From NCBI GenBank assembly GCA_964016885.1, contig OZ024747.1:48732001-48796000 (forward strand): DNA of 64,000 bases, read 5' to 3'. Shown one piece after another: positions 2,872 through 64,000 of the stretch. Numbering within the stretch: position 1 is the stretch's first letter; every line of letters begins with the position of its first letter. The notes below the pieces were generated by a model. That model was not told where the DNA came from and searched no databases. It saw only the letters and a list, made by a program, of their open reading frames with translations. The stretch comes from Eledone cirrhosa. Taxonomy: Eukaryota. The translations under genes were made by a program, and so were the position numbers.

Positions 2872-3837
2872 GAATCCCGTTTCAATCGAGGTTAACCACA
2901 GCAAGTATGGTACTCAATACATTAGAAGAGTGTAATCTTCATTTTAAATATAGAAATGGCTTTTACAATAAAGATATATCTAATGCAGTGAATGTATTTA
3001 TCGTATAAATATCATGGTATTTGTTAAATAAGCTAAAAGGGATTTGTTGATTGAGATGAGGTGCAGACGTTTATAGAGATTTATAGATGTTGTGGATGGG
3101 TAGTATGTAATATGTATATCAATATGTATATATCAATATATATATATATATATATATATATATATATATATATATATATATATATATATATATATATATA
3201 TATATATAAGATCAAAAGATGGTTAAAAGAGTTCCATGTATTTTATTATGCACATTTCAAAAACAAATATCATCATGCATTAACATTTGTGTTTTCATCA
3301 GATAAAATAGGAAGACATGATATGAAGGTTAAAAACACTTGTGGATAGTGCAGTTTTAAATCAACATATGAAAAGTAGTTTTAGATTAATGTGTGATATT
3401 GGTGAAAAAAAAAGGGGGGGGGGGGAGGTTGGAAAGGATGAAAAAGAGGAGGAGATGAGAGTAAAAAGTGCGCATGATAAAATACATGGAACTCTTTTAA
3501 CCATCTTTTGATCTTATATATTATGTACACTCCAGTCCTACAAACTGTAGAGTGCTTCTTATCCGATATCTGCATTGCTTTATTGTACTACAATAAAACT
3601 CACCTCCTACATATATATATATATATATATATATATATATATACACACACATATTGATATATATATAATATATATATAATTATATATATAATTATCAGGA
3701 AAGTGCTTTCCTGGTGTTTTCTTTTGGATGAAACTGTTCTAGTCCTGTAAAAGCCATTTCTATATTTAAAATGAAGATTACACTCTACTAATGTATTGAG
3801 TACCATACTTGGTTAACTCCGATTGAAACGGGATTCA
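2872..3837. mobile_element. Nested inverted repeats of PLE pLTR-like families: outer arms 2872-2967/3747-3837, inner arms 3204-3255/3465-3521
   Basis: Arms are reverse complements by eye; the outer family recurs at 31590-31780; GAAACT-GTTCT-AGTC hammerhead 3' half near 3730. Confidence 0.7.
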
Positions 3838-5274
3838 CACACGCACGCACACACACGCACACACACGCACACACACACACACACACACACATACATATAT
3901 ATATATATGTATTTATATATATATGTATATTATTAAATATATTAATATCGTCGACCTTGTAACAGATGATGTGCTTGTAAGTTCAATATAAAATTAAACA
4001 GATATGTAGCCGACACACGAAGATGTTTTGAGTACATTGAATAAATTAGTTCAAAATTAGTTTAGATCCACATACATCACAGAAAGGGTTGTATGCTGAA
4101 GGTTAATGTTTGCAGAATTTTAGAAAATATAATTGGTAGACATTTGAAACACACACACACAGGCTCACATATGCTACGCCACTGGTGCCAAGCTGTATCG
4201 GCCATTGCCGATACAGCATCGGTGGCGTGCAGAAAGGAGACTGGTATGCATAGACGACTAGCATTACATGTATGTACACACACACACACACACACACACA
4301 CACACACACATATATATATATATATATATATATATATATATATATATATGTGTGTGTGTATGTATATATGTATGTATACATATATATGTTTGTATACATA
4401 TATACGTGCTTGTGTATATGTGTGTGTATGCACGAGTGTAGTAGAACGTTAACTCAATGACCACTCAAAACATGTGAGCTCACACAAACACACACATATA
4501 TATATATAGTTCATTTTGCGTATTTATGTGTGTGTTTTTTCATCCAAGCCCTGTCGTCTTTTTGATTCAGTTTCTTCAATCCATCATTGCATTGTCGGTG
4601 TTGATGTTGGTGGTGGTAAAGATAATGATGATACGGTTGTTGTTGATGACGAAGGCGATGATGATGATGATGACGTTCATGACGATAATGATAATAGTGA
4701 TTATGATGATGTTGAGGAAGTACAAAGTGTAAAAAGGATAACGGGTTAGTAAGAGCAACCTTGGGTTATATATATCATGTTTGAGCAGAACCCATTCACG
4801 TATATATAATATAATATAATATAATATAATATAGTAAAATATAATATAATACAATGTAATATAATATAATATAATATAATATAATATAATATAACATAAT
4901 TGTGTCTACTTTTGGCACAAGGCCAGCAATTATCCAGTACATTACTGGTACTTTATTTTTATCGACCCTGTAAGGATGAAAGGCAAAGTTAACTTCGGCG
5001 GGAAATATAATATAATGAAATATAATATAGTATAACGTAATAATATAATGTAATATATATATATATATATATATATATATATAAATAAAAATAGAGAAAT
5101 TAATGTGAGCAAGAAGCCAACAGTAATTCATACATATAAGTGACTATTACGTCAAGATGGAAAATATTTAACGTGTATATATATATATATATATATATAT
5201 ATATATATACACAAATACACACTAACATACATTCACACACATACAACACATATATACATACATCTCATCTCCTC

Positions 5275-5545
5275 ATTCCATCTGTCCCGTAGTTTGGTGG
5301 ATCGTTGAGGCGACACATTACCTGGCAGTCACCTCCTTCCATTCCTCTCGACTCTCCGCTCTCCTCATCGTTTCACCCAGCCTTATGCCGTCCATTCCGC
5401 CATCTTGTCCTCCCATCTATTTCTCTGTCTGTCTCCCCCCCCCCTTCTTGTACTGTTGGCTGCAGGACATATTTGACAAGCCATTGGGCCCTACGAAGAC
5501 CTTCTGGCCTTTGTAAAAAAACGCAAATTGAGATGGTACGGACAT
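5275..5545 (-). mobile_element. RTE-like LINE 3' fragment with an inverted 5' piece
   Basis: Minus strand VLQPTVQEGG..RWEDKMAEWT; plus strand 5483-5545 IGPYEDLLAFVKKRKLRWYGH, which normally precedes it in RTE ORFs. Confidence 0.65.
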
Positions 5546-5610
5546 ACACACACAGACACATACACATGCATACACACACACATATATATATATACATATA
5601 TATATATATA

Positions 5611-5809
5611 TAATGGTTTCTTATATAGGCACAAGGCCAGCAATTTGGAGGGAGGGGGGAAGTCGATTAAATCGATCCCGGTGCGTGACTGGTACTTTAT
5701 TTTATCGACCCCGTACGGAAGAAAATCAAAGTTAACCTCGGCGGGATTTAAACTCATATCATAAAGGGGCGCAAAGTATGGCGTCCGACCCTCTACCGAT
5801 ACTGCCAAA
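5611..5809 (-). mobile_element. tRNA-derived SINE, long variant
   Basis: Similar to the other SINE copies; A-box TGGCAGTATCGG and a B-box-like GAGTTTAAATCC on the minus strand. Confidence 0.85.
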
Positions 5810-62084: not shown

Positions 62085-62396
62085 TCAGAGTATACACTGA
62101 GGATGAAAAACTCAGAGCTGTATGGGAGCATCCCAAAAGTCAGCTCAAAAGTGACACAGAGGAGACTGAGGTTGGCTGGACATGCTCACCGACATCCAGA
62201 GTTGACATTGCACTCAGTGCTCCTTTGGGAGCCCCTACATGGACTCACTAGAAGAGGAAGACCAAGGTTAACATATGTTGATGCCCTAAGGACAGACACT
62301 CGTCTGTTGGAGATGCAGGATATGGCAGCAATAATGAGGGACAGAGACCGCTGGAGAGAACTCGTCCATGGATCTCGGGAATTTTACCCGCCTTAG
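62085..62396 (+). mobile_element. RTE-like LINE 3' fragment embedded in (TA)n
   Basis: QRRLRLAGHAHRH..VLLWEP.HG..RRGRPRLTYVD..MRDRDRWR. Confidence 0.85.
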
Positions 62397-62960
62397 ATAT
62401 ATATATATATATATATATATATATATATATATATATATATATATATATATATATATAAGTGGTTCCACAACAGTTAGTTCACCATACCGGTATGATGAAC
62501 TAACTGTACTGTTGTGGAACTACTTCTACCAAACTCGTCCCATGCTCTGCTACTACGGAAATAACCCTCCACTGTTCTACTATTATATATATATATATAT
62601 ATATATATATATATATATATATATATATATATATATATATGATAAAGAACACAAGAGCGTCTACAACATCAAAAGATTTTTATTGGCTTACAATGTTTCT
62701 TCCTTACGTAACCGTAGGATTCGTCAGAGCTATAAAAGGGGTTTGATTGGTGTTATGGACTCTACCAACCAAACATTCAAGAACAAAGAGTAAAGAGAGT
62801 AAAGAACAAAAGCAGGGGACGATAAGTCTAATTTTGGTGCGGGAGGGTGGGGTTTGGGTCCTTGTTTACTAGCTGTGGTCATATTCATTCCCGGGAGTCG
62901 AGTGGTTAGTTGAGCCATAGATGGGGTGGCGTCGATAACACCAATCAAACCCCTTTTATA

Positions 62961-63005
62961 GCTCTGACGAATCCTACGGTTACGTAAGGAAGAAACATTG
63001 TAAGC
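62961..63005 (+). ncRNA. Hammerhead ribozyme in fold-back 62640-63057; mirror copy at 62686-62730 (-)
   Basis: GCU CUGACGA AUCCUACG-GUUA-CGUAAGGAA GAAAC-AUU-GUA AGC; arms 62640-62755/62935-63051. Confidence 0.85.
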
Positions 63006-64000
63006 CAATAAAAATCTTTTGATGTTGTAGACGCTCTTGTGTTCTTTATCATATATACGGCTCTGCTCCAAAGCATAGAGCTAACTATTATGCTGCCAAT
63101 ACCTTAATGGGACACGGGTATACAATACCTAACTCCTATTAACCTAAGTATATATATATATATATATATATATATACAAATATAAATTCACCGAGAATCT
63201 TATTTCAAGCGCTCCATGGACCAGAAGAGACCAGAGCAATCAACATAAGTTATAAAGGCCATACAAACTGAGACGGCGGTTAAGAAACTATTAACCACCT
63301 ACCCCCCCCCCCCCCCCCAAAAAAAAAGAATGAAGCAAGCTAAACGGATCAAACAAAATAATGCATATATATATATATATTTATATATTTTTATATTATA
63401 TATTTTTAGAACAAATTATTCCTCACAACAAAGAAATAGCTAACTTTTAAAGATTATTCTATTCCATTCTACTTGATGTAACACACTAATCTCAGCATCC
63501 CAACTCCTCCAACCGTAATCTTCTTTGACCATCAATACCTTTATATACAATATGCCTAAACTCATTTACACTAACAACTCTCATTTCTTTTCTTAAAAGA
63601 CACTTGATACCTTATCCACTGATGGCCTATTTATTCATCTACTACCACCAACCTTAAGGATTTATACTGCCCCTTTCCATTCTTAACAATGGTCAATCTC
63701 AACCTGGTTATAAAACCTTACTTATTCATATGTATGTTTGTTTTTGTATTCTTCAATAAACAAAGCTCATTATTTCTGAAGACTGCGGGTAGTGAAGACG
63801 TATGTATTCTTTTATCACCAAGATATTTTGTAATATGTTTTACATAGATCAATAATTAAATGAACATGCAAAGGACTACCCACCCAGAAACGATCGTAAA
63901 ATAATGTGTTTTACTATGAATTAACAGTTTTGTGTTTAATTTCATTGTTTTAATATTTCTATATTTATATATATATATATATATATGTGTGTATGTGTGT

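Follow-up and report, generated by a model that had tools for sequence, protein, structure and literature searches.

Hairpins and host elements of the locus

The 64,000-nucleotide stretch of the Eledone cirrhosa assembly analysed here (contig OZ024747.1, positions 48,732,001 to 48,796,000, forward strand; below, the window) contains Penelope-like elements (PLEs) whose 3' tails carry a small bulged hairpin of the form N-CUC-stem-loop-UN-GAG-N'-RCU. In PLEs of the Hydra clade the hairpin is doubled, which the original prediction made from this DNA had missed: two sense-strand copies lie between the hammerhead ribozyme and the open reading frame (ORF). We conclude that the hairpin pair is real and that it forms a cis element, apparently undescribed, of an already known clade. 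The features of the window are listed below; families are named after the position of their hairpin, copy 1 is the hairpin nearer the hammerhead, and numbers with the prefix L denote individual loci outside the window.

3529-3553, plus strand: hairpin copy 1 of a Hydra-clade family, within a tail of 89 nt; the partner arm of the fold-back starts at about 3209
3782-3801, plus strand: hairpin copy 1; its family is related to 31716 and has a sister copy at 2912-2931 (minus strand)
6153-6178, plus strand: further instance, absent from the original prediction; its first stem pair is mismatched here and intact in L278
6830-6869, minus strand: hairpin copy 1 with a long loop; hammerhead core at 6935-6971 (minus strand)
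9682-9706, plus strand: hairpin copy 1, 4 nt beyond the junction of a 152-bp perfect fold-back (9360-9678)
28052-28075, plus strand: hairpin copy 1 of a very young short family with a 77-nt tail; other copies at 6413-6436 (minus strand), 27830-27853, 31065-31088 (minus strand) and 38080-38103
31715-31733, plus strand: hairpin copy 1, 6 nt beyond a fold-back junction
33868-33885, minus strand: weak look-alike in single-locus DNA, likely chance and not counted as a member
33905-35794, plus strand: 5'-truncated, interrupted Hydra-clade PLE ORF with reverse transcriptase (RT) and C-terminal GIY-YIG endonuclease
36780-36882, plus strand: 3' pseudo-long terminal repeat (pLTR) of that ORF element, with a hammerhead-like core at 36819-36842; its short (inner) end runs into (TA)n without tail or hairpin
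39968-39988, minus strand: hairpin copy 1; hammerhead core at 40040-40077 (minus strand)
41062-41107, plus strand: long-looped hairpin copy 1 in a tail of the family that has its ORF at 33905-35794; hammerhead-like core at 40990-41013; the tail ends at about 41146, in tandem copies 4 nt before copy 2
55651-55670, plus strand: hairpin copy 1, preceded by a Hydra-type endonuclease fragment (54745-55372) and a hammerhead core (55577-55599)
63060-63081, plus strand: hairpin copy 1; hammerhead core at 62964-62995; copy 2 and a Hydra ORF follow beyond the tail end in L329

All 11 strings on which the original prediction was built are present in the window at the positions it gave, and ten of them lie in 3' tails of PLEs. 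The remaining site, 33884, is likely a chance match, since a genome search gave only two matches, both inside the window, and hence no family, its base contains a T.C mismatch, its stem has 2 bp, and no hammerhead was found upstream. The claim that many unrelated families share the motif has to be reduced: because sites 3783 and 31716 are related (75% identity across 125 nt), the ten good sites represent at most nine families. The predicted CUC/GAG base is present, but it comprises 4 bp rather than 3, with an additional outer pair that is A-U, G-C or U-A. Motif copies beyond those originally given were found at 2930 (minus strand), 6154, 6435 (minus strand), 27831, 31087 (minus strand) and 38081.

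Diagnostic motifs identify the ORF element as a Hydra-clade PLE. Sister copies of the window ORF, L015 among them, are open frames of 713 amino acids in which RT and C-terminal GIY-YIG form a single ORF. An N-terminal RWK-type motif is present (RLRWR in L015, RxRWK in most homologues), DKG is replaced by DKT in the window ORF and by NKT in L015, and both have a CxCx5C linker as well as CxxC and CxH around the conserved E and N, with no CCHH. No Pfam family was matched, and a sequence comparison with the PDB gave only a weak match to a retron RT; the predicted fold (pLDDT 91) has TERT as its best matches, at ranks 1-8. According to the part of Craig et al. (2021; PMC8557442) available to us, to which all statements on that source refer, the Hydra clade of C-terminal endonuclease-positive PLEs shares the RWK-like and DKT motifs, the CxCx5C linker and the endonuclease CxxC and CxH, and also the hammerhead, the (TA)n targets, the inverted 5'-truncated arms and the one-sided tail. 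Adjoining the 5'-truncated ORF, a 59-bp segment occurs as an inverted duplicate (33379-33437 and 33891-33949) in apparently single-locus DNA; it may be target DNA, copied or turned round in the course of insertion.

For eight of the 11 sites (3530, 3783, 6868, 31716, 39987, 41063, 55652 and 63061), family copies have a hammerhead core at 67-108 nt upstream of the hairpin. The core-pattern search found none for 9683 or 33884, nor as part of family 28053. These cores were identified by the core pattern, and that of family 41063 is a variant: in the family of the window cores 36819-36842, 37955-37978 and 40990-41013 (L001-L030), CAGA replaces CUGA in essentially all copies. This hammerhead-like CAGA family is young and has an intact ORF. 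Families 28053 (for which a link was sought and not found), 9683, 6868 and 3783/31716 remain without a connection to an ORF.

Covariation, position and clade of the hairpin

The original prediction held that the upper stem varies and yet keeps its pairing, and this was confirmed by a test blind to the stem. Among 70 unique metagenome sites, anchored only by CUC and GAG-N-N-C, stem positions 1-3 pair in the register of a 2-nt bulge at frequencies of 0.96, 0.74 and 0.80, as compared with 0.75, 0.42 and 0.40 after permutation (p=0.0005 each). Pairing did not exceed permutation in this test for registers of 0, 1 and 3 nt, while a register of 4 nt reached p of about 0.02 at two positions. With one locus for each of 21 ORF clusters, the three positions still pair in 35/38, 24/35 and 21/29 cases, and pairing persists when clusters formed at protein identities of 80, 70 or 60% are each represented by a single locus; altogether, the covariation spans 21-36 ORF clusters with a median amino-acid identity of 47%. 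Moreover, ten sites of equal length contain 13 doubly changed cells, against 4.5 after shuffling, a value that none of 500 shuffles reached. This count was made by script on equal-length sites, MAFFT having misaligned the 5' strand of 45 sites of unequal length.

The remainder of the hairpin follows a consistent pattern. The first base of the bulge is U in 68 of the 70 sites and is preceded by a purine in 67; a purine-U step with a Watson-Crick pair is found in 63, although GAG and CUC served as search anchors, so the pairs flanking the bulge are not independent evidence. In family 55652 the bulge is mostly 1 nt. The pair outside CUC/GAG is mostly G-C, with A-U in many sites of the octopus genome itself and a rare U-A in L206 and L208, where both copies carry it. 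At the first stem pair, copy 1 has U-A in 14 cases and C-G in 11, while copy 2 has C-G in 25 and U-A in 2; concerted change of both copies inside one element was not significant (p 0.09 and 0.37). The loop measures from 6 to more than 30 nt. Wobble pairs in the upper stem are asymmetric (G.U 8 versus A.C 2), which favours the sense strand as the one that folds. The 3' flank is conserved by sequence, as RCU. This flank, GAG-YR-CUC, is near-palindromic (GAGCACTC in 30 of the 70 metagenome sites, L171-L248), and could perhaps let copies or RNAs pair with each other. In the tails at 3560-3610, 9712-9752 and 63100-63148, as in most Hydra tails, an extra, non-conserved hairpin lies between both motif copies and may shorten their distance.

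The predicted excess over shuffled sequence depends on the descriptor. A scan of the window for CTC, a stem of at least 3 bp, a TN bulge and GAG found 15 sites, four of which are copies of one family, against 5.65±2.42 in 40 dinucleotide shuffles (maximum 11), and a refined descriptor found 14 against 4.98±2.46 in 100 shuffles (maximum 13); with a stem of at least 2 bp the excess in the window was not significant (24 versus 18.4±5.0). Since this enrichment is modest, the proof rests on position and on loci outside the window. In metagenome loci, the 8,298 nt of upstream sequence contain 70 matches in sense and none in antisense, while 121,791 nt of ORFs contain 4 and 5. The resulting densities, 8.4 per kb across the 200 nt preceding the ORF and 0.03-0.04 per kb inside ORFs, correspond to a positional enrichment of more than 200-fold. 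In the octopus genome (an animal genome, 3.0 Gb searched), a pattern that does not require the inner stem gave 10,962 matches, as opposed to 838 for the reversed control (overlaps counted), and most of these, among the matches listed, pair in the inner stem.

Might the hairpin then be a chance pattern, or a relic of shared descent without selection on structure? The loose descriptor, which is not enriched in the window, and site 33884, itself such a chance match, are what this explanation can call upon. It is refuted by the stem-blind covariation and the positional enrichment, and the presence of the motif in published coral and sea-cucumber elements speaks against it as well; we give it practically no weight.

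The motif is not common to all fold-back families. A scan made without reference to the motif, covering the window and 80 further 10-kb stretches of the genome (10 adjoining the window), looked for fold-backs with one arm abutting (TA)n. The 163 junctions were reduced to 89 once simple sequence and internal mismatches had been removed. On visual inspection, the hairpin lies just beyond the junction in about ten families, whose tails measure 64-104 nt, and is missing from at least six, whose tails measure 31-56 nt; the others are noise. A family pair that lacks the motif comes from a PLE of 1217 amino acids whose GIY-YIG is canonical and whose linker is CX4CX2C; its motifs are of the Neptune/Nematis type. 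Six read-through copies of this non-Hydra PLE, which has a hammerhead and a (TA)n target, contain no motif within 250 nt past the inner end; therefore the motif is a property of a clade and not of PLEs at large. Within the range tested, only Hydra-clade PLEs carry it. In a non-Hydra family (L031), what looked like the motif beyond the tail was dismissed, as the three genome matches continue differently and the six true tandem copies are without it.

The 1217-amino-acid PLE (L359-L362; window 40340-40900 and 41190-41450) is young, with tandems of about 4.1 kb, many open frames and 41-56-nt tails. An ACAC core is common to its tails and to other motif-less tails (window 26012, 57980 and 53580), and recalls the AC-rich start region of Poseidon_Ac, a PLE of another clade.

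Outside the octopus, the motif occurs in metagenome loci and in published Hydra consensi of a coral and a sea cucumber. In File S7 of PMC8557442, inspected by eye, it follows the hammerhead in Hydra-2_Amil and Hydra-2_Ajap, stands twice at the start of Hydra-1_Ajap and is degenerate in Hydra-1_Crog. A search of the whole supplement for three 9-letter cores gave six occurrences, four in the Hydra sites just named, one in a Naiad ORF and one in a Chlamys ORF, although line breaks may hide some.

Two hairpins and two insertion ends

The twin arrangement is best seen in metagenome loci. Relatives at about 40% identity were found at 78 of them, and the subset of 29 that contains both a hammerhead core and an ORF start has two copies of the hairpin in 23 cases, one in 5 and three in 1 (stem-blind rule). 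In the metagenome loci, copy 1 lies 75-107 nt from the hammerhead, copy 2 follows after 52-83 nt, and the ORF starts 28-84 nt further on; depending on the family, the two copies are 52 to about 95 nt apart. The octopus elements are arranged likewise: in tandem copies, where a pLTR leads into the next ORF, the second hairpin is found 4-10 nt beyond the tail end, as in family 41063 (L015, L036, L271, L275), the family of 39640 (L270, L296), L251 and L076. Tandem copies of family 3530 at other loci (L161, L258, L276, L277) have copy 2 at this distance as well, followed by a Hydra ORF. For family 63061 the second copy was predicted and then found, together with a Hydra ORF (L329); it is altered in L318.

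The two hairpins coincide with two kinds of insertion end. At 30 loci fetched by protein, copies of family 41063 end either short, directly into (TA)n, or after an additional tail, about 90 nt long, which holds the 41063 hairpin on the sense strand; thus, the motif sits in the known PLE tail. Ends that abut a microsatellite lie just 5' of copy 1 (short) or of copy 2 (tailed) in 81 of 87 cases in this family, 64 of 65 in family 3530 and 33 of 34 in family 39640 (ends were mapped on a tandem reference, and BLAST ends may overrun by a few bases). Exact mapping in family 41063 places 26 of 28 ends 4 nt before copy 2, while two modes, of 3 and 8 nt, precede copy 1. The spacing anticipated by the original prediction is upheld, as partner arms or sister copies enter (TA)n 3-10 nt before CTC. 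The sequence just 5' of the hairpins is UA-rich: TATA or ATAT is present in the preceding 13 nt at 40 of 67 sites (18.2 after shuffling). Among 35 metagenome loci with a tandem 5' copy and a 3' copy, 10 reach the contig end and 9 read through; 12 of the other 16 end 1-11 nt before a hairpin. Together, covariation and end mapping support a conserved element at a short distance 3' of PLE insertion ends, a location which suggests a role in positioning the start of cDNA synthesis.

The fold-backs at 53620-53980 and 33470-33660 belong to a family that ends at three positions, with tails of about 50 and 115 nt. It lacks the canonical motif, and another bulged hairpin is located some 7 nt beyond its middle end.

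The hairpins might instead serve expression, as promoter, in translation or in ribonucleoprotein (RNP) assembly in the 5' leader, and owe their nearness to the ends solely to a shared location between the hammerhead and the ATG. Copy 2 indeed lies 28-84 nt before the ORF start, in a region which in tandem arrays forms the 5' leader to the following ORF. This explanation is nonetheless very improbable: both end clusters follow both copies within about 10 nt, even though the spacing of the copies differs so widely between families.

Inverted pairs join two such ends. Of 80 pairs, 3 could not be classed; the other 77 comprise 71 short+tailed, 5 tailed-tailed and 1 short-short, and in the family fetched by protein all 11 are short+tailed. 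These counts bear on a processing role, by which the transcript would be cut or terminated a few bases 5' of each hairpin and ordinary target-primed reverse transcription (TPRT) would proceed from those 3' ends. The same two end clusters would be expected, and for Poseidon_Ac (PAc) the ends of RNA-seq reads match the start sites (Frangieh et al., 2024; PMC11167929, here and below as far as the part available to us goes). Two separately cut RNAs would be needed per event, however, and short-short and tailed-tailed pairs should then arise as well as mixed ones, which the single short-short and five tailed-tailed pairs speak against. Furthermore, the motif matches no Rfam ribozyme, and lengthening the 3' end of PAc RNA left the start in place (PMC11167929). 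We therefore hold RNA processing to be quite unlikely.

Other repeats of the window include a very abundant interspersed repeat of about 200 bp, partly tandem and SINE-like in look (8293-8471, 11011-11189, 12833-13306 and others), and two minisatellites (29106-30049, 22 bp, 43 copies; 49117-51020, 66 bp, 29 copies).

Proposed positioning of cDNA starts and known systems

We propose that the twin hairpins are likely RNA binding sites which position the RT-endonuclease, so that copying would start 3-10 nt 5' of each. A tandem (read-through) transcript would carry both hairpins, and two RT active sites, probably of a dimer, would dock one on each. The endonuclease would nick both strands of (TA)n, and each 3' end, pairing through a few UA bases, would prime a cDNA; the two cDNAs would run towards the 5' end of the RNA and be joined head to head. 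With two internal starts on one RNA, the tail would therefore be the spacing between them; of the two hairpins, copy 1 would be reverse-transcribed in tailed ends alone and copy 2 in tandem arrays alone.

The nearest precedent is PAc, for which internal RT starts at two sites bounding the tail, cutting and extension of both DNA strands, AT-rich targets and a predicted dimer have been reported (PMC11167929). PAc differs in that it belongs to another clade, uses an AC-rich stem-loop inside the ORF and has one binding region, as opposed to one hairpin per start here; no conserved or repeated motif is reported in the available part of that paper.

The hairpins could instead act in DNA, where the GIY-YIG endonuclease would read a single-stranded or extruded intermediate, cut 5' of it and so resolve tandem cDNA into short and tailed ends. 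Craig et al. attribute the tail to endonuclease-mediated resolution (PMC8557442), the Drosophila Penelope endonuclease required the tail for recognition (as cited in PMC11167929), and the near-palindromic 3' flank, GAGCACTC in 30 of 70 sites, would suit such a site. Nevertheless, the variable loop and the covarying inner stem rule out a plain double-stranded site, the wobble pairs favour the sense strand, whereas first-strand cDNA is antisense, and PAc initiates internally on RNA in vitro (PMC11167929). Action in DNA is thus unlikely.

Several observations weigh against RNA hairpins as start-positioning sites. For Hydra elements this role is deduced from sequence, and PAc has no such motif in its start region. 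The G.U asymmetry is small, the proposed fold is the energy minimum in about half of the window sites, with z mostly above -2, and copy 1 and copy 2 can cross-pair; marginal free energies are as expected for a protein-stabilised element, which they may indicate and do not prove. Copy 2 was not seen in family 55652 (in L077 or the window) or in family 28053, and five of the 29 metagenome loci have a single copy. By eye, the motif was not seen in Hydra-1_Amil and Hydra-1_Obim in File S7, so that two of six published consensi have none and one a degenerate form. The distance to the end is not one number but 3-10 nt across families, with two modes within some. Finally, tail sequences served as queries for the loci of families 3530, 55652, 28053 and 63061, a choice that favours tailed copies.

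As regards novelty, no account of the motif was found in the open-access literature, although subscription journals, Repbase/Dfam notes, figures, the PAc GenBank file or bioRxiv supplements could hold one. The available parts of PMC7229834, PMC4209133, PMC3846280 and bioRxiv 10.64898/2026.07.22.740005 do not mention it. Rfam 15 gave no covariance-model match over the hairpins in 20 loci, and in the window, among 150 of 201 matches listed, all were below the gathering score, with one spurious overlap with a site (E 0.29). In the part of Craig et al. (2021) seen, the Hydra-clade tail is given as 30-40 bp, its origin as unknown, and the word hairpin occurs 0 times; here the tail measures about 52-105 nt and is bounded by two conserved hairpins, which are visible, unremarked, in File S7 of the same paper. 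For two decades, the one-sided tail and inverted ends of PLEs have been on record with no cause given; the sole in vitro study placed two internal start sites but no signal. Paired hairpins, one per end, in molluscan-type, cnidarian and echinoderm elements make the origin of the tail directly testable, and the hairpin offers a precise boundary marker for annotating a very abundant repeat class.

A local likeness to HIV-1 TAR and 7SK SL1 may hint at how the hairpin would be recognised. In the arginine sandwich of these RNAs (Pham et al., 2018; PMC6189040, in the part available), a purine and a bulged U are followed by G-C, A-U and G-C, as here; in TAR this bulge setting forms the U23.A27-U38 triple, and bulges of 1 and 2 nt occur both in 7SK and in our hairpins. 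The loop, however, closes the opposite side of the bulge (a permuted arrangement), the likeness is one of local sequence alone, and the biology is unrelated, which leaves at most convergence. On the protein side, an RxR precedes WFNPP, its two R being present in 97% and 96% of 112 homologues with K/R-mixed neighbours, in a predicted loop without regular structure; basic stretches also occur at this position in Penelope and Poseidon. The TAR/7SK-like bulge and the RxR loop are a lead, not a finding. Possibly, though we are doubtful, the twin TAR-like hairpins form a ruler: a dimeric telomerase-related RT-endonuclease would grip both by its invariant RxR loop, align UA-rich templates on both nicked (TA)n strands and start two cDNAs together. 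If so, this would be a two-start, two-strand TPRT mechanism; the hairpin would be a minimal, telomerase-like element for template positioning, and its 25 nt would make a portable tag that directs internal initiation on any RNA.

The RTs of PLEs are the closest relatives of telomerase, and a template-positioning RNA element in them would therefore bear on the origin of telomerase RNA. In the telomerase RNP the template is positioned by flanking RNA elements, while in hepadnaviral epsilon the bulge is the template for protein-primed synthesis. The original prediction had likened the hairpin to epsilon, and this analogy fails in its defining feature: the ends lie 3-10 nt 5' of the hairpin and are joined to target (TA)n. 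Because they lie outside the hairpin, on its 5' side, the bulge is not the priming template, and priming is by DNA. What the Hydra elements would have in common with both systems is an RNA structure beside an internal template that sets the RT start, together with a short stretch for primer alignment; they would differ in starting twice on each RNA, in copying the whole element processively, and in having an endonuclease of their own that makes the primer.

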